From Promethearchaeum syntrophicum (GTDB taxonomy: Archaea > Asgardarchaeota > Lokiarchaeia > Sigyniarchaeales > Promethearchaeaceae): a DNA stretch of 32,000 bases. The DNA lies in assembly GCF_008000775.2 (NCBI RefSeq), contig NZ_CP042905.2:1170001-1202000 (forward strand). The letters are read 5' to 3'. Shown one piece after another: positions 14,825 to 29,611 of this stretch; within the stretch, counting starts at the first letter, position 1, and each line of letters opens with the position of its first letter. The notes beneath the pieces were generated by a model. That model was not told where the DNA came from, searched no databases, and saw nothing but the letters and a program-made list of their open reading frames with translations. The position numbers were made by a program, and so were the translations under genes.

Positions 14825-15541
14825 TCATAAATGCAATTTTAATCCGTTGTACAGTTCTATTGCCAAACGTTCTGTAATCTGATTTAGAATCAAATCATCT
14901 GGATGAACTTTAGTTTCAAGAATTTTCTTTTCTAGATGCCCCGCTTCGTAGGATAGTCTTTCTTTTTCATCAAAAGTTAGAGATTGTGGGTCTTTAATAT
15001 ATTGTTGGACAAGCTTAATCGGAGATTTTTGGTAGTATCGAAAAAGATCACCATAATTTTCAGAAAAGAATAGAGATTGACCTTTAGATAACAAGTTATC
15101 AGTAGGGATGTGAGCAATTTTTAATAATTCTAAGGGAATATTGGATAGACTTACAATTGGATTATCGGTTAAATCGAGATGTTGCAGATTTACAAGATTT
15201 CTGAAACTTTCCGGTAAAGAAGTTAATTTATTTCCCCATAGTTGGAGTTTTCGAACTTTTACAAGATTTCCGAAACTTTCCGGTAAATTTAATAATTGGT
15301 TCCAACCTAAATCGAGTTCTTGAAGATAAACAAGATTCCCAATATTTTCTGGTAAAGATATTAAATTTTTAATACCTGTAATTCTTAATTTGATAATTTG
15401 ACCATTTTTAACGTAATATCTTGGCCGTGGGGATATTTCTACCCATTTTCTTAATTCCCACTTTTTTTTTCTGTATATTTTTAATTCTGGGTATTTTTTT
15501 TTGAACGCTTTGAATACTGCTTTTTCTGAGTCTGAAATCAT
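14825..15541 (-). CDS. Leucine-rich repeat (LRR) protein, eukaryote-like 23-residue repeats
   Basis: Four consecutive LxxLxLxxNxLxxLPxxhxNL repeats (LPENIGNLVYLQELDLGWNQL / LNLPESFGNLVKVRKLQLWGNKL / TSLPESFRNLVNLQHLDLTDNPI). A helical C-terminal region follows. GTGA lies 8 nt upstream of the ATG. Confidence 0.85.
   Translation of the reverse strand: MISDSEKAVFKAFKKKYPELKIYRKKKWELRKWVEISPRPRYYVKNGQIIKLRITGIKNLISLPENIGNLVYLQELDLGWNQLLNLPESFGNLVKVRKLQLWGNKLTSLPESFRNLVNLQHLDLTDNPIVSLSNIPLELLKIAHIPTDNLLSKGQSLFFSENYGDLFRYYQKSPIKLVQQYIKDPQSLTFDEKERLSYEAGHLEKKILETKVHPDDLILNQITERLAIELYNGLKLHL
15120..15370. repeat. 69-bp (23-codon) tandem periodicity at DNA level underlying the LRR units
   Basis: acaagatttc[t/c]gaaactttccggtaaa occurs at 15192 and again at 15261. 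A diverged copy (caagattcccaatattttctggtaaa) is at 15331. The spacing is exactly 69 nt. Confidence 0.85.
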
Positions 15542-15561: not shown

Positions 15562-17313
15562 TTATTTTCTTGTCTTATCCCATTCTTTTTCCAATATTTT
15601 ATACGATAATTTTTGTGAAATAAAATTCCAAGGGTGTTGCCCAAATGAATTTCCTTTCATATCTTCAAAGAACTTAATAATATATTCATTCTCTCCAAGA
15701 TGTTCCCGTCGAGTTATTCGATACCATTTTTTAATCTCTCGACCAGTTTGATAATATTTTAAAATTAATTCACTCATTTCTGTTCCCCCCAAAGATAATA
15801 GTGTTTGGATGTAAGCTTCCTCAACGGGTAAGGTTTCAAATTTTATTTGCTTATCGCCCTTTAACGGATCATATATTTTTTTAAGTTTTTCTTTTAAAAT
15901 AATTAGATTTGCATCAGAAAAATTATCAATGTATGATTCAAATGGAGTATGTGCTTTAGGAATAAAGGGATTTATGCTTAGTCGAACTCCTTGTTTTCCA
16001 AAACCTAGCGCTGCAATTTCTTTAACTAATTTAGGAATCGCATCAATATCTTCTTTCGTTTCAAATGGCAGCCCATATAATATATAGAGTTTGACATTAG
16101 GAATGCCTGCTTCCAGTAATAATTGTGCTCCTTTCAAAATTTCTTCATTACTAATTTTCTTATTAATTTTTAAACGGAGTCGATCTGTTCCCGTTTCTGG
16201 TGCAAAAGCTACCGTTCTCATTCCACTTTTTGCTATTAATGAAGCTAATTCTTCAGATAATGTTTCGATTCGGATAGAAGGGATTGAAAATTCTACTTTC
16301 TGATCAATTAAGAATTTACATAATTCTCTAAATTTCGGATGATCTGTTACCGATGAACCAATTAAGACTACCTTGTTTACGCTAGAATTTTTAATTCCAG
16401 AAATTATAATTTCCTTCAAATTTTCAAGACTACGATTTCTAAAAGGTTTTAATTGACTTCCAGTCATACAAAATCGACAAAAATGGGGACATCCACGATT
16501 TATTTCTGCGTAGAAAGATTCTCCAAAAGGCAATGGATATTTTTCATGGGGTTTAACTTTAGGTATTATTTGTCTAATTGGATGTGGAAATTCATCTAAA
16601 TTTTTAACATAAACACGTTCGATATCACCATAATCTGTAAAGTTATAAATTTGAGGGATCCAAAAACCCGGTGTATTTTGGAGTGTCTTTAAAAAATTTC
16701 TTTTAATTTGGGCATAAGTATGTAAAGAATTTGAATTAATCGAATTAAACCATGAATTTATCATTACATCATTAACTGGTTCAATTTCTCCAATAAAAGC
16801 GGCATCTATAAATGGTTCTAATGGTAACGGATTTGAACGAATAACAGGCCCGCCTGCTAATATTATTGGAAAAATTTCTTCTTCTTCATTAATTATTTCA
16901 TTTTCTCCATGAATCTTTTTTGACATCCTATCATTTCTAAGAAATGGAATATGGCTATTATCTAATATCCATACCAAATTCGGAAAATCAAGTTCATAAT
17001 TAATCGAAAACGCAATAATATCAAATTTTTTTAATGGCATTTGGTTTTCCATACTTCGGATCGCTGGGTAAAACCGGGCAGGATTAGTATTAGAAACAAA
17101 ATTTGGAGGTAAATTCTTAGATTTAAAGGTTTTAATCTCTTTATTAGAGGGCATGAAGAAACGTTCACAAATTACGTTGGGGAATTTATTCCATAGGGCG
17201 TAAAGTGTTTGAATTGTTAAACCAGCCATTGAAGAATATATATTAGGGTAAACTAAAGCTATCCTTAAATGATCTTCACGCCATGGTTTTTTAATCATAT
17301 TCAATTCATGCAT
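15562..17313 (-). CDS. Radical SAM enzyme with an N-terminal B12-binding-like domain (COG1032-type, function unknown)
   Basis: 583 aa. It has the CxxxCxxC cluster motif NRGCPHFCRFCMTG. Its N-terminal pattern (IALVYPNIYSSMAGLTIQTLYALW) is typical of the uncharacterised B12-binding/radical-SAM fusion family. Confidence 0.9.
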   Translation of the reverse strand: MHELNMIKKPWREDHLRIALVYPNIYSSMAGLTIQTLYALWNKFPNVICERFFMPSNKEIKTFKSKNLPPNFVSNTNPARFYPAIRSMENQMPLKKFDIIAFSINYELDFPNLVWILDNSHIPFLRNDRMSKKIHGENEIINEEEEIFPIILAGGPVIRSNPLPLEPFIDAAFIGEIEPVNDVMINSWFNSINSNSLHTYAQIKRNFLKTLQNTPGFWIPQIYNFTDYGDIERVYVKNLDEFPHPIRQIIPKVKPHEKYPLPFGESFYAEINRGCPHFCRFCMTGSQLKPFRNRSLENLKEIIISGIKNSSVNKVVLIGSSVTDHPKFRELCKFLIDQKVEFSIPSIRIETLSEELASLIAKSGMRTVAFAPETGTDRLRLKINKKISNEEILKGAQLLLEAGIPNVKLYILYGLPFETKEDIDAIPKLVKEIAALGFGKQGVRLSINPFIPKAHTPFESYIDNFSDANLIILKEKLKKIYDPLKGDKQIKFETLPVEEAYIQTLLSLGGTEMSELILKYYQTGREIKKWYRITRREHLGENEYIIKFFEDMKGNSFGQHPWNFISQKLSYKILEKEWDKTRK

Positions 17314-17555
17314 TACAATTTATCAAGATCATTTCTCTTCTAAATTTTTTCAATCACAAATGAAACTTATTCTAACATAAAATGTAGTATTGCGAAGTTT
17401 TCAAAATAAAAAATATTTTCTGGCATTGTTTTTCCTTTTTTTTGATGAAATTAAAATTATCCCCAACCTTAAATGTAGTTAAATTTTCTTGGAATTTTTC
17501 CATTGAACAAGGATAAATACAGATGGGACGCTTAGCGTAATAGAAGTTGATCTTT

Positions 17556-17927
17556 ATGATCCTAACTTACAAAAATTTAACTGAAGAACGAGAGATTTAC
17601 TGGATGCTTAAACAAAATTACTTTGATGAATTTGAATATTATAGTGGAATAATTGAAAAATATGAAAATTCACGTAATACCATTAAAGATTTTTGTATTT
17701 CTACTTTTGTTTCACAAGAGATTATTGAGATTATGAATCAATATAAAAATATAATCAATTCTAATCCAAAATACACGGAAATCATGGATTGTATATTAAA
17801 AAATACTATCCTACTATTACAATCATTCCATATTGATGAAAATAACAACCAATATAAATTCTATTCACAATTGGAAACTCATGAACGAGAATTAATCAGC
17901 TCTCAACTAATTAATTTATGTTATTGA
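17556..17927 (+). CDS. Hypothetical small protein
   Basis: The track ORF starts at TTG 17547. The ATG at 17556 is preceded by GTTGATC (SD-like). The protein is N/I/Y-rich and no family is recognised. Confidence 0.4.
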   Translation: MILTYKNLTEEREIYWMLKQNYFDEFEYYSGIIEKYENSRNTIKDFCISTFVSQEIIEIMNQYKNIINSNPKYTEIMDCILKNTILLLQSFHIDENNNQYKFYSQLETHERELISSQLINLCY

Positions 17928-18256: not shown

Positions 18257-18994
18257 ATGGATAAAGATAAAAAAGAGAATAAAAAGCAAGAAATTGAAGA
18301 AAAGGATAATAAAGTACAAGAAACAAACCCATCTGAGACTTTGAAACCAGATACAAAGAGTAAAAAAGATAAAAAGAAAAAAGAAAAGCCAAAAACAGAG
18401 ATCGAAATATTAAAAGATAAAGTTAAAAAATTAGAAAAACAAGTTGCTGAAGAAAAAAATAAATTTGCCTTTCTTCAAGCCGAACTTGAAAATACCAGAA
18501 AACATTACATCCGTCAGCAAGAAGCAGCTAAAAAAAGAACAAAAATCAATACGATTACATCCTTTACTCCTTTAATTGATAGTTTTGAACTCGCGTTTAA
18601 GAGTAATGAAAAATTATTAGAAAATAACAATGAGAAATGCCAAATAGAAACGTTCGTTGATGGATTTGAAAAACTCTATGAAAATTTGAAAACGATCTTT
18701 GATAAATATGGTGTGAAACCTATTGAAGAAACAAATATTCCCTCAGATTATAGACAGCACGAAGTGATTCTGAGAACCATCAATGATGAACTTCCTGAAG
18801 ATACTGTCCTGCAAATCGTTCATAAAGGTTATAAGATGAATGGTGAAGTAATTCGACCTGCTAAAGTAGTAGTATCAAAAAAAACCCCTATAGTATTACC
18901 TCCTGAACCAATTTCTGATTCTGATAATGGCGAAGAAAAGAATTTAGAAGAAGTAAAAAAGCCTGAAGGGGAAAAACAGATTCCGTTTGAGTAA
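18257..18994 (+). CDS. grpE: GrpE nucleotide-exchange factor for DnaK, with a long Lys/Glu-rich N-terminal extension
   Basis: The coiled-coil segment LQAELENTRKHYIRQQE matches the GrpE AEFxNxRKR region. The C-terminal beta-domain reads VLQIVHKGYKMNGEVIRPAKVVVSK. An AGGTGA SD lies 10 nt upstream. Confidence 0.85.
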   Translation: MDKDKKENKKQEIEEKDNKVQETNPSETLKPDTKSKKDKKKKEKPKTEIEILKDKVKKLEKQVAEEKNKFAFLQAELENTRKHYIRQQEAAKKRTKINTITSFTPLIDSFELAFKSNEKLLENNNEKCQIETFVDGFEKLYENLKTIFDKYGVKPIEETNIPSDYRQHEVILRTINDELPEDTVLQIVHKGYKMNGEVIRPAKVVVSKKTPIVLPPEPISDSDNGEEKNLEEVKKPEGEKQIPFE

Positions 18995-19002
18995 TTTTTT
19001 CA

Positions 19003-20070
19003 TTAACTATCTTCGATTGTTTTTATACCATTAATTAACAACAAGTTATCTACTTGATTTTCCATCCAATCAATTAATTCATTTATTCCTGCACGTTTTG
19101 GAAGACTCGAAAATATAATTTGCCAGTCACGATCATGAATATCGTTCAATTTAAATTTCTCACTTATTACTTTTAGATTTTTATCGCAACCAGGCAAATC
19201 GGTTTTATTTACTAAAAACAACAAAGGAATTCCTTTTAATTCATATAGATTTAACATATTCCAAAGCTCTTCTTTTGCTTCCAAAAATCTTTCTGAATCT
19301 GCACAATCCAAAACATATAATAATAAATTGCTAGCTTGTGCACCTCGTAACCAATCAGATCGAAATATTTTTTGTCCAGGCATATCCCAGCATACAAGTT
19401 TCACCCCAGAATCCAGTTTAACATTTGTGATTCTGAATTTTTTTGTGGGGGGAAAATAATCAAAATTAAATTTACCCGTGGATAATAAGCGCATAAGAGA
19501 AGATTTTCCAGCAAAATCAATGCCATAAACGAAAACTTTAACTAATGGGTTGCTGTTGGAATCAATCATCACTTTATTGATTTCTTTTTGAAAAACTAAG
19601 GATTCATCATCATATTTTCTTATATCGATAAATAATGTTAGTAATAAATTTGATTTATTTTTAATTTTATCAGTTTTATTAACTTTCTCGAAAGTTTCTA
19701 GGTATGAAACCATCAGATACTCTTGAAACAATCGAATCAGTTCATTACGGTAATCATATGGATTAGCATCTTTTTTAAAAACTAAACCTAAGATATATTG
19801 ATAAGGTAATGGAATGACTAATAAATTAACACCATTAACTTGAATCGCTTTTGAATTTGCATGTAAAAAATCATCTGTGAAGTGCTCAGGTTGATAGTTT
19901 TTTTCTAAAATAGTTTTTTGACTTATAATTATTTGCCGAACTATTTCATTAGAATCAAATAGTATATCTTCATCAGGATATGCAAGATACGCATTATTAA
20001 AATTGTCTGAATTTATTTCATTGCTATTATTTTCAGGGATCAAATTCATTAAGAAGATATTTTCAAGCAT
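19003..20070 (-). CDS. Arf/Arl-like small GTPase (C-terminal, about 19006-19542) fused to a ~175 aa N-terminal longin/roadblock-like domain
   Basis: G1 GIDFAGKSS. Switch I PPTKKF. G3 WDMPGQ, followed by an Arf-like interswitch/switch II (RSDWLRGAQASNLLLYVLDCADSERFLEAKEEL). G4 NKTDL. The N-terminal region has no nucleotide-binding motifs. Confidence 0.9.
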   Translation of the reverse strand: MLENIFLMNLIPENNSNEINSDNFNNAYLAYPDEDILFDSNEIVRQIIISQKTILEKNYQPEHFTDDFLHANSKAIQVNGVNLLVIPLPYQYILGLVFKKDANPYDYRNELIRLFQEYLMVSYLETFEKVNKTDKIKNKSNLLLTLFIDIRKYDDESLVFQKEINKVMIDSNSNPLVKVFVYGIDFAGKSSLMRLLSTGKFNFDYFPPTKKFRITNVKLDSGVKLVCWDMPGQKIFRSDWLRGAQASNLLLYVLDCADSERFLEAKEELWNMLNLYELKGIPLLFLVNKTDLPGCDKNLKVISEKFKLNDIHDRDWQIIFSSLPKRAGINELIDWMENQVDNLLLINGIKTIEDS

Positions 20071-20445
20071 GATACAAATTCATCCATAATAAGATACGTT
20101 TAATTCTATTGAAAAAATATATTTTTATTTTTAAATTCTCGCTATTTCATCATTTAATGAAAAAATTATTTATAAATTAACCCATTTTGGTTAAAATCTC
20201 GGGATTTTTATTATTCTTAATCATGTTTCCCAATATTTAAAAATATAAAAATTTTTGGGTATTTTAAACTCATTTCTGAGTATAACTTAAAATCGATAAT
20301 GATATAGAAAAAAGGATCATATTTTATTTGATTTTCAACCATTTATGAATAAGAAAAATAATTTTTTTAAGTTTTTGTAAGATTTTTATTCAAATAATTA
20401 TTAGAGTACTCACTACCTTAAATTTACAAATTAAGTGAGCATTCA

Positions 20446-22314
20446 ATGTATAATAATTTAATTTCAACAGTTGATTTAGAAAAATTAACTGCTTTAAACA
20501 ACCAAAAATTAATGGACATTGTAGATAAGGCCATTAAATTAATGAAGCCCGAAAAAGTCATTGTTTTAACAGACAATTCTGAGGAGATCGAAAACTTTCG
20601 CAATCTTACTATCGAAGCCAAAGAAGAAAAGAGCTTAGCTATCGAAGGCCATACGATTCATTATGATGGATATTATGACCAAGCCCGAGATAAAGGGCAT
20701 ACTGCTACATTGCTTCCAGCAGGAGAACAACTTAGTCGAGGATTAAATGTTATTGAAAGGAACAAAGGTTTAGAAGAAGTACTTGGTTTTATGGATGGAG
20801 CAATGCAAAACAAGACAATGATCATAAGATTTTTCTGTCTTGGGCCAACCAATTCTAGATTCTCCATTTCTGCATTACAAATAACTGATTCATTCTATGT
20901 TGCCCATTCAGAAGACATATTATATCGCCCCGGTTATGAACAATTTAAGAAATTAGAAGATAAAAATGATTTCTTCTATTTTTGGCACTCCGCGGGAAGG
21001 TTAGATGAGAGGAATACTACAGTTAATATTGATAAACGGAGGATATACATAGATCCTTTAGAAAATCGGGTTCTTTCAGTAAATAACCAATATGCAGGTA
21101 ATAGTTTAGCTTGTAAAAAATTAGCCCTAAGGCTTGCAATTTATAAAGCAAATCATTCAGATTGGTTAACAGAACATATGTTCATTTCGGCTTACTACTC
21201 TCCATTTAAAGATCGAAAAACATATTTTGCAGGGGCATTTCCATCAGCCTGTGGAAAAACCAGCACTGCAATGATTCCAGGAGCAACCATTGTAGGAGAT
21301 GATATTGCTTATATTAAAGAGGGTCCAGAAGGAGAAATGCGCGCAGTAAATATTGAACAAGGAATTTTTGGGATAATTAAAGATGTCAATGCACAGGATG
21401 ATCCTGAAATTTTTAAAGCAATCACAACTCCTAAAGAAATAATCTTTTCAAATATACTCACAACAGCAGATGGAAAAACCTATTGGCAAGGTATGGGAAA
21501 AAATGTGGAGATTCCAAAAGAGGGTTATAACCATTCAGGATCTTGGAAAGAAGGAGATAAAGATAAGGATGGAAATATTATCCCTCTTTCCCATCCAAAT
21601 TCTCGATTTACTGTTGGTATAAGTGAACTTGAAAATGTTGATGAAGCTTTGCATGCAAGTGAAGGCGTTCAAATTGATGCCATTTTATACGGAGGTCGAG
21701 ATAGTTATACAACAGTTCCCGTAGCGGAAAGTCTAAATTGGCGACATGGTGTCTTTATTGGTGCCACTATTGAATCTGAAACAACCTCTGCCACGCTTGG
21801 AAAATCTGGAGTTCGAAAATCAAATCCAATGGCTTGTATGGACTTTATAATTGTGCCTTTAAGCCTCTATTTCAAAAATCATTTAAAATTCGGTCGAAAA
21901 TTAAAGCAATGCCCAAAAGTTTTTTCCACTAACTATTTTCTAAAAGGGGAAAACGGGCAATATCTGAATACAAAGCTTGATAAAAAAGTATGGGTATTAT
22001 GGGCTGAAGGGCGAGTTCATGGTGATTATGATGCAATTCTCACTCCTATCGGTAATATTCCCAAATATGAAGATTTGAAAAATCTATTTTCTAATGTTTT
22101 TGACGGACGAGTTTACAGTAAAGAAGAATATAAAGAGCAATTTTCATTACATATTGATCTTTATTTAGAGAAATATCAACGAATGGAAGAGCTTTTCAAA
22201 GATGAACCGGATATGCCGTTAGAATTTTGGGATGAACTCACAAGAATCCGAAATGGATTGGAAAATCTTCAAAATCAGAAAGGGAAGAATGTAATATCTC
22301 CGTTCGATTTGTAA
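20446..22314 (+). CDS. pckG: Phosphoenolpyruvate carboxykinase (GTP-dependent)
   Basis: 622 aa. It carries the PEPCK-GTP signatures YAGNSLACKKLALRLA, kinase-1a FPSACGKTS, kinase-2 VGDDIAYI, HPNSRFT and YGGRD. Confidence 0.95.
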   Translation: MYNNLISTVDLEKLTALNNQKLMDIVDKAIKLMKPEKVIVLTDNSEEIENFRNLTIEAKEEKSLAIEGHTIHYDGYYDQARDKGHTATLLPAGEQLSRGLNVIERNKGLEEVLGFMDGAMQNKTMIIRFFCLGPTNSRFSISALQITDSFYVAHSEDILYRPGYEQFKKLEDKNDFFYFWHSAGRLDERNTTVNIDKRRIYIDPLENRVLSVNNQYAGNSLACKKLALRLAIYKANHSDWLTEHMFISAYYSPFKDRKTYFAGAFPSACGKTSTAMIPGATIVGDDIAYIKEGPEGEMRAVNIEQGIFGIIKDVNAQDDPEIFKAITTPKEIIFSNILTTADGKTYWQGMGKNVEIPKEGYNHSGSWKEGDKDKDGNIIPLSHPNSRFTVGISELENVDEALHASEGVQIDAILYGGRDSYTTVPVAESLNWRHGVFIGATIESETTSATLGKSGVRKSNPMACMDFIIVPLSLYFKNHLKFGRKLKQCPKVFSTNYFLKGENGQYLNTKLDKKVWVLWAEGRVHGDYDAILTPIGNIPKYEDLKNLFSNVFDGRVYSKEEYKEQFSLHIDLYLEKYQRMEELFKDEPDMPLEFWDELTRIRNGLENLQNQKGKNVISPFDL

Positions 22315-24810: not shown

Positions 24811-27090
24811 TTATAGGAATTCTTTAAAATGGGTTTCCACAAGTTTTCCGTCATCGGTAAAAAACCCCATGTTTCCAGTCCAATTTTCGAGAATATCTCC
24901 GTGTTTTTTTTCAAAATCTTCAATCGTACTTTTTAATGCCAATCGGATAGTAGAATTTTCCCGATCCGCAAATACGGCAGTAAAAAATGGAAATTTTTCA
25001 GAGTATTCTAAGATAACCTTTTTATCACCTGAATCAATGCCTCTTAGAAGGTCACTGCTTCTAGTTGTTTCTTGGATAAAGCCGGTTAAAGCACTAAACA
25101 TTCCGCTTACTAATGCGGGATCTACAGGTGAGCCTTTATCCCCTCTGAAATTGTAGTAAAATAGATCTCTTCCATCAATATAGAGTATATAAAGACCATC
25201 TATTCTCGCTTTTTCATGAGTAAATGAGAATTCAGGGACCCACCAAGATAAAATTTTCCTTTCAGTTAGATCTTTGAGTAAATCATGTAGATTCTGAGTT
25301 TCATATAAAGAATTGTAGAGTTCAGTTAATTCTTGACCAGTTAATCCATTGCTATTTTCCAATTTTAATATTAGATTTTTCAATTTAGGATCTTTTATTT
25401 CCGCTGTATCTATATTTTTGATGGTAATTAGATATTCGGGGTTTTTTTGGAAATCTTTGAAAGTAACCAATTCCTGTATGCTTGAATAGGTTATTTTCTC
25501 TACAAATTTATTTTCTTTAACAATTGTTTTTGTCATAAACTTCTTATTGATAAAAGCTATTAGATATCCATACAAAATAAATGAAACATATGGGCGTAAT
25601 ACTAAAAATGGATAAGCTAATATAGACAATACAATATTATTTGAAAAATTAGAGTTCATAAATCCTGTTCGCATGGTTATAAAATCGAAATTCATCTCCA
25701 TGCTAATTGGCGCGCTCGTAATCCACACAGCATCTGGACCTATATATGTGGGACTTAATGTTGAATAGAATTCAGGAATAAGTAAATAAAACAATATAGA
25801 TATTATAAACAAAAAGATACAGAAAAAGAATATTGATATTCCGCTGAAAGCATTTAATTGAATTGATTTTGCAAAGAAATATGCTATTACGAGCATTACG
25901 AGAATAACATGCAAAGAATCGATGAAAATTAGCAATTCTGTGATAGAAATAATGCCCAACGTAGGTGTTTCTGCAACTAAAGATAGTGTTAAGAAATCAA
26001 CTCCACCCTCAATAGTTGCAGTTATACTTAGTTTTAAAAACATTACTCCAAATTTAATAAAAATTACAATTGCAGCGGCAACGATGCTATAGGCAATTAC
26101 TATACTATTATTTGATATCTGTGATTTAACATTTTCTTTGGATTTCTTTTCCTGAGCTATTTTCCGCTCTAAGCGATTTTTTCTCCAATATATTAATTTC
26201 AAGAATATTAATATACTGATCGGCTCAAAAATTCGTAATAATATTATAAAAATAAATGCCCCCATGAAGAAATAAGCAAAAAAGTACAAAATAAGTACAA
26301 TACTATCAATTTTTTGTGCAATGAATAGAAGAATCGAAAGAATTGCAATAGGAGTACCTATTTGTGTCAAGCTTGTAAAAAATTTTGATTGAATTTGTTC
26401 CCCGATAAATCTCCCTTTAAACGATATCTTGCTTGATTTTATAAGCTGGTAGCAAAATAGAAATGTTACAATATATACAAAGAGAATTTCCAAAAACCAT
26501 CCTAATGCATCTGAAGATTCTGCCACATTCGTAGGTTCAACGTTAGCTATATCAAGAATTACAACTAAAATATATAAGGAGATTGGTAATAAAATTAAGA
26601 ATGCCATAAGCAATTCTTTTTCTTTTTTCCAATCCTTAGCCGTTAAGGATTTGATTATCATCTCTCGAGGACTTTCAGAGAATTCAAAATTAATTTTTGA
26701 ATATTTCTCATCCATTGTACCTGGTTCAGATTTTAATCGGAAATATAAAACCAACATCGATATAAATGGGGAGATGATGAATATTAGAGGTAAAATTACA
26801 AAAGGATATTGAAGATATAAGAGTAACATGGAAAAAGAGCGTTCAAATAAGAAAATTATTAAATAACCAATATTATTTTTTTCATTTTCTCCTAACGGGA
26901 TTTCTTTCACATCTTGGAAAATCGCAGGAAGAACCCAATAAATCAAGAAAAATATACATAGACCGAAATAAAACCTTCTGTAGATTAATCCGATTTTCTT
27001 TTTCCTTAAAAATATTAAGGGTATTGCAAAAATCAACACTGGAAACAAATTTATTACAATGCTTAATATAAAATCAATTGTTTCAGCCAT
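24811..27090 (-). CDS. Large polytopic membrane protein (about 14-15 TM) with a 241 aa soluble C-terminal tail; its last ~131 aa (about 24814-25206) look longin/roadblock-like
   Basis: 759 aa. Hydrophobic segments were counted by eye. The tail begins after …YGYLIAFINKKF. It contains a helical, possibly winged-helix-like, stretch (LTGQELTELYNSLYETQNLHDLLKDLTERKIL). It ends with a beta-beta-alpha-beta-beta-beta-alpha pattern (GLYILYIDGRDLFYYNF / PALVSGMFSALTGFIQETT / LRGIDSGDKKVILEYSEKFPFFTAVFADRENSTIRLALKSTIEDFEKKH). Confidence 0.8.
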   Translation of the reverse strand: MAETIDFILSIVINLFPVLIFAIPLIFLRKKKIGLIYRRFYFGLCIFFLIYWVLPAIFQDVKEIPLGENEKNNIGYLIIFLFERSFSMLLLYLQYPFVILPLIFIISPFISMLVLYFRLKSEPGTMDEKYSKINFEFSESPREMIIKSLTAKDWKKEKELLMAFLILLPISLYILVVILDIANVEPTNVAESSDALGWFLEILFVYIVTFLFCYQLIKSSKISFKGRFIGEQIQSKFFTSLTQIGTPIAILSILLFIAQKIDSIVLILYFFAYFFMGAFIFIILLRIFEPISILIFLKLIYWRKNRLERKIAQEKKSKENVKSQISNNSIVIAYSIVAAAIVIFIKFGVMFLKLSITATIEGGVDFLTLSLVAETPTLGIISITELLIFIDSLHVILVMLVIAYFFAKSIQLNAFSGISIFFFCIFLFIISILFYLLIPEFYSTLSPTYIGPDAVWITSAPISMEMNFDFITMRTGFMNSNFSNNIVLSILAYPFLVLRPYVSFILYGYLIAFINKKFMTKTIVKENKFVEKITYSSIQELVTFKDFQKNPEYLITIKNIDTAEIKDPKLKNLILKLENSNGLTGQELTELYNSLYETQNLHDLLKDLTERKILSWWVPEFSFTHEKARIDGLYILYIDGRDLFYYNFRGDKGSPVDPALVSGMFSALTGFIQETTRSSDLLRGIDSGDKKVILEYSEKFPFFTAVFADRENSTIRLALKSTIEDFEKKHGDILENWTGNMGFFTDDGKLVETHFKEFL

Positions 27091-27559
27091 GAATTAATAT
27101 TTCGAGAACTCATTAAAAAATTTGAGTGTTTTTCTTTTAACCACCATTTAGTTTCCCATAAAAAAGTCCCCAGAAAAATTCAATTTTCATTACAATTTGC
27201 CTCAAACCACACATTTGAGAGCAATCTTTAAAATCGATCTAAATAGCTATTTCCTATTGTTTCGGATTTTCTTAATATTTTTTACGATTTTTCGTATTAA
27301 CAAAATTTCTCATGAATAAAATAAGTTTGAATTACCTTATGGAGATATTATTGACATTTACGGCCGAATGTAAAGAAATAAGAGTTAGAATGATAAAAAA
27401 AATAAGTTTTAAATTAAAGTTTTTCTTACTTCTTTTGATATAATTTACTTGATTTTTTCCATGTTTCTTTTCCTAAACCACCCTAAACATTTTTTAGTAA
27501 TAAAAATCAACTTTTTTTTATCGAATAAAATCGTAATTAATTTCGATGATGTGAAAAAA

Positions 27560-29611
27560 ATGGCTAGGAAAAGAAAAAAGAAAGTAGAACCTCCAAAAGA
27601 GACCAAAATGGGTTTCGCAGCTGATGAACCTGTAGAGAAGCAACAAGCTGAAGAGATGAAAACTTATTCTGGTGGATCTGAGGAAATCCAATATAAGAAC
27701 CGTAGCGGAAATATTATTGAAACTTTTGATTCTGCATCAGGGAAGAAAGAAGGGGAAATTTCTTTAGGCTCACAAGGTGCTAAAGGAAAATTTGTAATGC
27801 TTGAAGTATTAGAAAAAACCGAAAATCATTATGAATATAATGGAGAAACCGACATTGAAGGTGACAGAAAAACTTCAGGTATATTCAAGATTAAAAATCC
27901 ATCAGATTCTGATAAAATTTGGGACATTGATGTCACTTTTAAAAAAGATAAACCTGTAGGGTTGGATGATGAAATTCATCTCAAAAATTTAGACCCAAAT
28001 GAGGAAAAGGAATATGAATATGAAATTGAGCAATTTGAAGAACCTGCTCTAAAAATATCTGAATTCGTTAGCACAATTAATGATGAAGATACCCTCAGTT
28101 ATTCCCTTGCAACGGGAGATGAAAATAAAGTATTATTTAAATTAGTTTTAAAGAACCTTATGGATTATCCTATTAAGAATATTGTGGTTAAGAAGGAAAT
28201 TCAAGAGGGTTATACTGATTTCAACCTACTTGGAGCTTCATTGGGATCTACAGATAATACTTCAGAATTTATTGAATGGAAGATTAATACGTTATCAGCT
28301 AATGCAGAAGCTGAATTAAAACTCAATATGAGTATCCAAATTGAAGATTCAAGCTCAAAAGTACGAACAGGGAAAATTACAGCAGAATATTCAACTCCAG
28401 ATAAAGCTTTAACCGGACTTGAAATAGATAAGTTTGATGCCTATTCAAATAACTTTGTGGGTGTTTTAGAAGAACAAAAAGATGATAAACCAGATGCGTA
28501 TGATTGTTCTGTGATGTTTATTAACGAAAGTGAATTTCAAGTAAAATTGGTTAATCTCGATGTAAAAAACGCTGTAACTGATAAAAAAGTTTTAGACATT
28601 GATCCAAATGAAATTCCAATTGTCGCTTCGGGTGCTACTTGGACATCATTACCATGGGAAACCGAAACTGATGATGGTTTAGAACCCCGCTTCCTTAAAA
28701 CAGTCGAATTCTTTTTAATTGCTTCACGAAAAGTCTCTACTCTAGGAACTATTGCAATTGATGATTTTGAATTGGCAGTGGCTGCTATTGCAGGAAAATT
28801 GGATTATTCCTTAGTACAATTAATGTCTTATAGAGTTACTCCATTTGATGCATTATTACAAGTCAAAAATACTGGTGGTGCCGATTTAAACGAAATTATT
28901 TTTGAAGAAACAATTCAAGAAGGATATGTGCCTCCAAATCCCGAAGATGTTGAAGTATACATAGTAAAAGATTATGAATCAGATATTGAAGAAGGAGATG
29001 CAGATTGGGAAAACTTGGGTGATCCTATTGAAATCGATACTGATTTAATTGAAATCAGTCCAAATAATCGAGAACCTGATACGGAACATGTTATTAGGAT
29101 TAAACTCACAGATCTAAAAGATCATGCAATGGGGATGTTCCTTCCAAATATGGTCATTCGGCTTAAATATCCTATTGAAGCATATAAACCTGCAAAAGAT
29201 TCAGAATATGTCTCAAATGTAAGATATATTGCCAACACTTATCCCGCAGGAGCTCCAATAGAATTTATTCCCGCTGCTAAAGCCAGAATTCCAGTTCTAC
29301 ATCTGAGAAGAAAAGTCCTTAAAGGGAAGAAGATTCACGCAATGGCGACAGAAGGTGAATATCAAATTGTTTTGACCATTAAGAACACAGGAGACACTTT
29401 TATTGAGAATGTCGAAATGAGAGATGTAGTACCAGACAATTTTGAGTATGGATCATATAGTTTTGAACCAGCATCAACTGATAACCTTGAAGGAAAAGAT
29501 TTATTAATCTGGAAGATTGATCGGATCGAAGCAAACGACGAATTTGAGATCACATATACAATCACCGGTAAGGGCGAATACAAAGCTAGTGATTCTCAAT
29601 TATCTGCTTGA
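27560..29611 (+). CDS. Acidic 683 aa protein of about five tandem beta-sandwich (DUF11/CARDB-like) modules, with a basic N-terminus and no signal peptide
   Basis: The recurring module pattern is h-x-h-x-h-x-N-x-(G/S)-…-I-x-N/D-h-x-h-x-D/E-x-h-P/Q-x-G-(F/Y)…, with a trailing amphipathic strand. Examples are IFKIKNPSDSDKIWDIDV, LFKLVLKNLMDYPIKNIVVKKEIQEGY, LLQVKNTGGADLNEIIFEETIQEGY and YQIVLTIKNTGDTFIENVEMRDVVPDNFEY…FEITYTITGKG. The preferred start is the ATG at 27560 (MARKRKKK). The upstream 37 codons of the track ORF are T-rich and intergenic-like. Confidence 0.75.
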   Translation: MARKRKKKVEPPKETKMGFAADEPVEKQQAEEMKTYSGGSEEIQYKNRSGNIIETFDSASGKKEGEISLGSQGAKGKFVMLEVLEKTENHYEYNGETDIEGDRKTSGIFKIKNPSDSDKIWDIDVTFKKDKPVGLDDEIHLKNLDPNEEKEYEYEIEQFEEPALKISEFVSTINDEDTLSYSLATGDENKVLFKLVLKNLMDYPIKNIVVKKEIQEGYTDFNLLGASLGSTDNTSEFIEWKINTLSANAEAELKLNMSIQIEDSSSKVRTGKITAEYSTPDKALTGLEIDKFDAYSNNFVGVLEEQKDDKPDAYDCSVMFINESEFQVKLVNLDVKNAVTDKKVLDIDPNEIPIVASGATWTSLPWETETDDGLEPRFLKTVEFFLIASRKVSTLGTIAIDDFELAVAAIAGKLDYSLVQLMSYRVTPFDALLQVKNTGGADLNEIIFEETIQEGYVPPNPEDVEVYIVKDYESDIEEGDADWENLGDPIEIDTDLIEISPNNREPDTEHVIRIKLTDLKDHAMGMFLPNMVIRLKYPIEAYKPAKDSEYVSNVRYIANTYPAGAPIEFIPAAKARIPVLHLRRKVLKGKKIHAMATEGEYQIVLTIKNTGDTFIENVEMRDVVPDNFEYGSYSFEPASTDNLEGKDLLIWKIDRIEANDEFEITYTITGKGEYKASDSQLSA

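Follow-up and report, generated by a model that had tools for sequence, protein, structure and literature searches.

What does a small GTPase of the Arf family do with a complete additional domain at the position where its relatives carry a membrane-binding helix? The question is raised by a gene of the Asgard archaeon Promethearchaeum syntrophicum MK-D1, which lies on the reverse strand at 19003..20070 of the 32,000-nucleotide stretch analysed here (contig NZ_CP042905.2, positions 1,170,001 to 1,202,000; this whole stretch is called the window, and all coordinates refer to it). The 355-residue product, WP_147662730.1 / QEE15831.1, is very probably an Arf-type G domain preceded by a longin-fold N-terminal domain (N-domain), and will be called longin–ArfR. 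The best overall explanation, to which we give a probability of about 0.55, is that it is a Lokiarchaeia-specific ArfR GTPase whose longin domain acts as a dimeric platform and replaces the helix.

The gene is a complete open reading frame (ORF) from ATG to stop codon, and its product is 100% identical to the MK-D1 database entry (match P0001); the source is thus a cultured Lokiarchaeial Asgard archaeon, as the original prediction, made from the sequence alone, had supposed in speaking of an Asgard-type origin. An ORF of 1 kb is improbable by chance because the window is AT-rich (27–35% GC), and a database search returned 49 homologues with E-values from 1e-232 to 1e-67. The start codon is validated by the conservation of the N-terminus, MLENIFL, in nearly all orthologues. 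The strings quoted in the original prediction are all found in the ORF (G183-IDFA-GKS, W228-DMPGQ233, N288-KTDL292, IFLMNLIP, EIVRQIIISQKTILEKN and AIQVNGVNLLVIPLPYQYILGLVFKKDANPYDYRNELIRLFQEYL). About 175 extra N-terminal residues had also been described, in good agreement with the position of the Pfam Arf match at residues 174–339, which leaves some 174 residues ahead of it. Conservation extends to this N-terminal half, in which 16 columns are invariant across an alignment of 29 sequences, and on the evidence of that alignment residues 1 to about 170 are neither a linker nor the product of a mis-called start.

The C-terminal half (residues 175–346; 19033..19548, reverse strand) had been assigned to the Arf/Arl type, and sequence, structure and published classification concur. 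Pfam Arf (PF00025) covers residues 174–339 with 110.1 bits (E=1.1e-31; cutoff 22.3), compared with 29.3 bits for Ras, 23.7 for Gtr1_RagA (cutoff 22) and 17.7 for SRPRB (cutoff 25) on the same protein. When the PDB was searched with phmmer, all of the top 60 matches were Arf or Arl proteins: Arl3 and Arl8 were best (~1e-24), the matches to Arl3, Arl8, Arf1 and Arl6 spanned 1e-24 to 1e-18, and 8OUL/8OUK, structures of the Asgard protein HodArfR1, were found at ~1e-21 to 1e-20. A full-length AlphaFold2 (AF2) model was built from an alignment of 37 orthologues, with a predicted local distance difference test score (pLDDT) of 80 and a predicted template modelling score (pTM) of 0.60. In this model the G domain superposes on Arl3, Arl1, Arl8 and Arf1 at an rmsd (root mean square deviation) of 1.6–1.8 Å and a target-normalised template modelling score (TM-score) of ~0.9, and the top 50 structural matches returned by Foldseek are again without exception Arf or Arl. 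The model is nearer to GTP-form Arfs, to which these rmsd values refer, than to GDP forms (~4 Å). The entry for WP_147662730.1 in Table S3 of Vargová et al. gives the class as ‘ArfR’ and the basis of the assignment as ‘tree’. After the G domain there is no further domain in the model, and the protein stops nine residues past the last helix.

All the elements of a nucleotide switch are in place. The G1 motif or P-loop (G183-IDFAGKS-S191; 19498..19524) has G183, G188, K189 and S191 invariant in 37/37 orthologues; the G4 motif (N288-KTD291; 19198..19209) is equally fixed at its N, K and D residues. Between them lies the G3 motif, which continues into switch II as a block of 21 consecutive nearly invariant columns, W228-DMPGQKIFRSDWLRGAQASN248 (19327..19389; all three features on the reverse strand), and includes the catalytic Q233 and the Arf-type residues R237 and W240. 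Across the 37 orthologues GxxxxGK[ST], T209, F212, W228, D229, G232, R237, W240, NKxD and the G5 residue S322 are present in every sequence, and Q233 is present in 36. The protein thus carries the Arf-type switch I/II signature (PTxxF; WDxxGQxxxRxxW) together with intact G1–G5 motifs. Given the conservation of the catalytic glutamine in switch II and of all motifs that bind nucleotide, the domain should be a working GTP/GDP switch with an Arf-type switch II.

A second MK-D1 protein, WP_162306576.1, carries the ArfR label among the entries of Vargová Table S3 and is also classed as a longin-GTPase (LG) by Tran et al. Its sequence shows a degenerate G3 motif, LDVCCTEH in place of WDxxGQ, so that the protein may be a pseudo-GTPase, and hhalign detected no similarity between its N-domain and that of longin–ArfR.

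For the region in front of the G domain, the original prediction offered a longin/roadblock architecture, and it is the longin half of this proposal that stands. The domain comprises residues 1–160 (19591..20070, reverse strand), as delimited by the AF2 model, Foldseek and conservation. Modelled alone, it gives a pLDDT of 76.7 (80–90 in the core) and a pTM of 0.74, and the same elements appear in the full-length model: β1 (residues 2–9), a variable loop (10–26), β2 (27–29), α1 (32–57), a short helix (66–72), β3 (74–78), β4 (81–88), β5 (92–98), α2 (104–129) and α3 (132–167, counted as part of the domain up to about 160). The low-confidence part comprises β2 and the β1-β2 loop. According to Tran et al. 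2024 (PMC10933270), longin domains are distinguished from roadblock domains by the lack of an N-terminal helix and by two C-terminal helices. The model has this longin topology, β-β-α-β-β-β-α-α with no helix at the N-terminus. The roadblock/LC7 topology of MglB, LAMTOR and the Rag C-terminal domain, α-β-β-α-β-β-β(-α), does not fit, as the first element of the model is a β-strand from residue 2 and its last are two helices. A Foldseek search with the model, which had been proposed as a check, is consistent with this: longin or roadblock proteins account for 49 of the top 50 PDB matches. The longest alignments (147–177 columns) are to true longins, namely AP-1 σ, the small subunits of TRAPP and ζ-COP, while those to roadblock proteins are shorter, at ~120–130 columns; chains of MglB, Nprl, the FLCN complex and Mon1-Ccz1 are also present among the matches.

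The conserved motifs of the N-domain are A-Y-P-D/N-E, F-T-E-D-F-L, P-L-P...I-L-G-L-V-F-D, T-N-P-Y-D-Y-R-N-E and L-L-L-T-L-F-I-D-x-R. Two of them may be regarded as hallmarks. The first, N103-PYDYRNE110 (19741..19764, reverse strand), lies at the β5-α2 junction and consists of invariant or nearly invariant columns; the second, L142-LLTLFIDIR151 (19618..19647, reverse strand), lies in helix α3, with D149 and R151 invariant. Attempts to connect the domain with other longin sequences through the longin domains of two MK-D1 paralogues failed, with hhalign probabilities of at most 1.5%; Pfam gave a single weak match to Folliculin (E=0.0027) among the paralogue longin domains, on a different protein. 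As far as sequence comparison goes, the N-domain of this orthogroup is an orphan, unrelated to other MK-D1 longin domains.

The two domains are joined by residues 161–174 (19549..19590, reverse strand), which are mostly coil in the model (pLDDT ~65). A hydrophobic-moment scan of residues 125–180 in 11-residue windows detected no Arf-grade amphipathic helix ahead of the G domain: the maximum moment (µH) was 0.49, at a mean hydrophobicity of ~0, compared with 0.57 and 0.40 for residues 2–12 of what we take to be the Arf1 sequence. Between the N-terminal MLENIFL (residues 1–7; 20050–20070, reverse strand) and the amphipathic helix of Arf1, which we take to begin MGNIFANLF, there is a superficial likeness. 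MLENIFL is modelled as strand β1, and the likeness is, judging from this model, probably coincidental. Thus, where an Arf protein would have its N-terminal amphipathic helix, longin–ArfR has a longin-fold domain of ~160 residues. A helix of this kind, released on GTP binding, is the defining feature of Arf proteins according to Vargová et al., who set aside ArfRs with extra domains prior to their screening for helices. The instructive comparison is with HodArfR1 and GerdArfR1 from the same study (PDB 8OUK/8OUL/8OUM), which belong to the same ArfR G-domain clade and have the Arf-type switch II signature in common with longin–ArfR; the target-normalised TM-score of the G domain against HodArfR1 (8ouk) is 0.89. 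These are, however, single-domain proteins of ~180 residues with an N-terminal amphipathic helix that binds membranes in a nucleotide-dependent manner (Vargová et al.), whereas longin–ArfR lacks the helix and has the additional domain.

The association of the two domains appears to be obligatory. A profile of the N-domain only, searched against 1.84 billion representative proteins, gave 24 matches in all, and each of the ten distant full-length matches that were scanned has a C-terminal Arf domain. The shorter matches do not qualify as standalone N-domains, being contig-end fragments or, in two metagenomic cases, the result of a frameshift or chimera. In P0055 (225 residues) the reading frame is lost exactly where the G domain begins, and in P0063 (178 residues) the first ~56 residues correspond to the start of the N-domain and are followed by unrelated sequence; from their sequences, both are probably assembly chimeras or frameshifts. 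P0055, P0058, P0059 and P0067, which belong to the distant subfamily, all keep NPYDY, and distant members also retain MLxNIFL and [LI]FIDxR. On these searches the N-domain family is known solely from proteins in which it precedes an Arf-type G domain. Since every full-length match scanned is Arf-fused and there is no convincing standalone form, the two domains would seem to be tightly coupled. Among 185,579 species-representative genomes scanned, the gene was found at eight loci, three of which are labelled only “uncultured archaeon”; the named carriers are all Lokiarchaeial, namely Promethearchaeum spp., Lokiarchaeum ossiferum, Harpocratesius repetitus and metagenome-assembled genomes (MAGs) of Promethearchaeota.

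Neither the architecture nor the protein is new. Klinger et al. 2016, as related by Dey, Thattai & Baum 2016 (PMC4917890), reported that five longin domains of Lokiarchaeum are fused to Arf-like GTPases. Tran et al. 2024 (PMC10933270) predicted structures for 74 small-GTPase-related sequences of MK-D1, 26 of them combined with roadblock or longin domains, and in Supplementary Fig. 6 of that paper WP_147662730.1 is tagged LG. Longin–ArfR has the same architecture as the Lokiarchaeial longin–Arf-like fusions and the LG class of MK-D1, and in this does not differ from them. Thus the fusion class has been on record since 2016, the protein itself was catalogued as a longin-GTPase and as an ArfR in 2024, and Asgard Arf papers of 2025 mention longin N-termini, Zhu et al. 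2025 listing longin domains among the N-termini of Asgard Arfs. The earlier statement that this layout had not been characterised therefore holds for experiments, in that our literature search found no functional study of WP_147662730.1 or its orthologues, but not for the architecture and the protein. What the present analysis adds is incremental: the orphan status of the N-domain, its own hallmark motifs, its occurrence only as an Arf fusion, its Lokiarchaeial carriers, the lack of the signature of longin-type GTPase-activating proteins (GAPs), and the neighbourhood of the gene.

How might such a protein work? We suggest that the covalently attached longin-fold domain replaces the Arf N-terminal amphipathic helix as the element of output and assembly. 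It would be a platform for protein–protein interaction, most likely dimerising in the manner of longin and roadblock domains in Rag/Gtr, MglB, TRAPP and the adaptor complexes. In favour of a dimer, Tran et al. 2024 (PMC10933270) report that AF2 predicts typical longin/roadblock dimer interfaces for the longin-GTPases of MK-D1. A dimer would be a two-headed Arf-type switch with Rag-like logic and reversed domain order; the longin platform, together with the highly conserved switch II surface, would convey its nucleotide state, in place of a helix inserted into the membrane. In Rag/Gtr proteins, too, a small GTPase has a longin/roadblock-superfamily domain covalently attached, and longin–ArfR probably works as they do, dimerising through its extra domain. 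The two differ in that in Rag/Gtr a G domain of Rag type comes first and a roadblock dimerisation domain stands at the C-terminus, whereas longin–ArfR has an Arf-type G domain preceded by a domain of longin topology and followed by nothing, so that the reversed order noticed in the original prediction is borne out. Longin–ArfR is accordingly not a member of the Rag/Gtr family. For the dimeric-platform mechanism taken by itself, the odds are tentatively put at somewhat below even.

Several observations limit this picture or point to another. The structural match to longin and roadblock proteins is only moderately significant, with a best E-value of 3e-3 and TM-scores of 0.35–0.5. A Pfam scan of the N-domain and of all 29 aligned homologues gave no relevant match, and a profile search of the PDB with the N-domain gave spurious TPR matches only; a profile-level match to Longin, Robl_LC7 or MglB, also proposed earlier as a check, was thus not obtained from either source. 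Furthermore, the N-domain never occurs without an Arf domain, the linker is short (~14 residues), and the nearly invariant stretch of 21 residues formed by switch II and its flank suggests a fixed binding partner.

The last points are those that would be expected if that partner were the longin domain of the same molecule. According to this alternative, the domain would dock onto its own G domain, as MglB does onto MglA and SRX onto SRβ, and would be a built-in effector, lock or co-regulator (an auto-GAP, an auto-guanine nucleotide exchange factor (GEF), or a protein of the guanine nucleotide dissociation inhibitor type), making the protein a self-contained timer. The invariant polar motifs NPYDYRNE and D149-x-R151 exceed what the fold requires, and longin/roadblock domains bind the switch regions of small GTPases in many systems (Tran et al., PMC10933270). 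MglA/MglB, FLCN-FNIP, GATOR1 Nprl2/3 and C9orf72-SMCR8, the last acting on Arf, are all cases in which longin/roadblock-fold proteins regulate small GTPases. On the other hand, the full-length pTM of 0.60 reflects no confident packing between the domains, and the modelled G domain resembles free GTP-form Arfs. The MglB and longin GAP complexes act in trans, whereas the domains considered here are fused, and longin–ArfR has neither the roadblock topology of MglB nor the signature of the longin GAPs. The longin GAPs FLCN, NPRL2, SMCR8 and C9orf72 are marked by a GP motif that lies at β2 or just ahead of it and by an arginine finger close to it in space (PMC12290439). In the aligned sequences and predicted secondary structure of the N-domain no such arrangement was found: the β1-β2 loop, variable both in length and in sequence, has no GP, and β2 is followed by the conserved A-Y-P-D-E. 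The same alignment and secondary structure contain no conserved arginine in the β3-β5 loops. R151 was considered as the finger; it is in mid-helix in the model, an unusual place for one, and membership of the longin GAPs on this basis is ruled out by the missing arrangement of GP motif and finger. A dedicated longin-GAP role is for that reason unlikely, as judged from the sequence, and the part of a GAP/GEF platform, which the original prediction had brought up for such domains, is hypothetical for longin–ArfR. Regulation in cis as a whole seems to us unlikely as well, if far from negligible, and of the alternatives it survives best.

A more far-reaching reading concerns the switch itself. Longin–ArfR might be a Lokiarchaeial form of the ArfR switch ancestral to Arf/SRβ that has no membrane-inserting helix, and in which the interswitch toggle, a shift of register by two residues that separates the GDP from the GTP form of Arf proteins, would reposition the attached longin platform; we regard this as decidedly speculative. 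If it were true, the protein would be a fused, self-contained version of longin–Arf pairs that work in trans in eukaryotes, namely SRX–SRβ, the σ/ζ subunits with Arf1 in AP/COPI, and C9orf72-SMCR8 with Arf. The invariant NPYDY and FIDxR would then form a nucleotide-sensitive interface, and a protein with a toggled longin platform could serve as a living model of how longin–Arf partnerships originated, or be a relic of that process. The eukaryotic SRP receptor, in which SRX, the longin fold of SRα, binds SRβ-GTP, likewise brings a longin fold together with a member of the Arf/SRβ/ArfR clade. SRβ is nested within the Arf family (Vargová et al.). The SRX–SRβ pair differs in acting in trans and in the transmembrane anchor of SRβ, whereas longin–ArfR is fused and no transmembrane segment is modelled. 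Nor does longin–ArfR belong with SRβ itself, given a SRPRB score below the Pfam cutoff and an N-terminus modelled as β1 of a soluble domain. There was no SRX structure among the top 50 Foldseek matches of the N-domain, and the literature search found no paper linking such fusions to SRX/SRβ.

The neighbourhood of the gene bears on another alternative. The gene is monocistronic. On one side a GrpE gene (18257-18994, forward strand; E=4.6e-35) converges on it, with 8 bp between the stop codons; on the other, a gene for GTP-dependent phosphoenolpyruvate (PEP) carboxykinase (PEPCK; 20446-22314) is divergent from it. The PEPCK and longin–ArfR genes have in common an AT-rich intergenic region of 375 bp (20071..20445), which is presumed to be the promoter region. 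The order PEPCK / longin–ArfR / GrpE is kept in Promethearchaeum, L. ossiferum, Harpocratesius and other MAGs (loci L001, L003, L006, L007 and L008), in which the outer flanks of the block differ between genomes. It is lost at one close locus (L005) and in three distant subfamily members (L009-L011). Since the order is absent from the distant members, the synteny is probably local collinearity, and we have not read a function from it. There was no candidate for a roadblock, longin, GAP or GEF protein near the gene; Tran et al. 2024 (PMC10933270) likewise note that the GTPases of MK-D1 are generally not in operons with genes for such proteins.

It is conceivable that the N-domain is a sensor for a ligand or signal, an α/β sandwich of the PAS/GAF/longin-like type through which a metabolite would gate the GTPase. 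The place that the close orthogroup keeps beside a GTP-dependent PEPCK would fit this idea, as would the absence of sequence kinship with curated longin families or with the longin domains of the MK-D1 paralogues. The conserved polar residues might form the lining of a pocket, and Dey et al. 2016 (PMC4917890) count longins among the members of the large PAS/GAF superfamily. However, the top matches among solved structures are almost all GTPase-associated longin or roadblock proteins and not PAS/GAF sensors, and the synteny does not extend to more distant family members. A sensor is thus very improbable. Finally, the proposal that the G domain is Rag/Gtr-like or SRβ-like, and the protein a domain-swapped Rag, has in its favour a Gtr1_RagA score just above the Pfam cutoff (23.7 versus 22 bits) and is scarcely credible, being largely refuted by the 110 bits for Arf against 23.7 for Gtr1_RagA and a sub-cutoff 17.7 for SRPRB, by the uniformly Arf/Arl nature of the top 60 sequence and top 50 structural matches, by the lack of a C-terminal roadblock domain in the AF2 model, and by the tree of Vargová et al., which in its tabulated entries places this protein in ArfR and other MK-D1 proteins in RagGtr.

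Some other genes in the window deserve mention. The GrpE homologue has a long Lys/Glu-rich N-terminal extension, which is longer still in the orthologues at L003, L006 and L008; there was no HSP70-family match among the window ORFs scanned. An ORF of 720 residues at 27449-29611 (forward strand) combines a match to Adap_comp_sub, the adaptor-complex medium subunit (E=9.6e-9, residues 218–332), with a C-terminal DUF11 repeat; this is a further eukaryote-signature-like domain, and the combination is unusual. A small leucine-rich-repeat protein (LRR_8/LRR_14; 14825-15541, reverse strand) adjoins a radical-SAM enzyme with a Radical_SAM_N2 domain (15562-17313). Two ORFs have no Pfam match, one of 759 residues (24811-27090, reverse strand) and one of 126 residues (17547-17927, forward strand); at L001 an ORF of 127 residues occupies the same position as the latter, between the GrpE and radical-SAM genes.

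In the debate on the origin of eukaryotic membrane trafficking and of GTPase regulation, the small GTPases and longin/roadblock domains of Asgard archaea have a central place. A protein in which a longin domain and an Arf-family switch are covalently joined could show how the two communicate. As both MK-D1 and Lokiarchaeum ossiferum are in culture, longin–ArfR is experimentally tractable.

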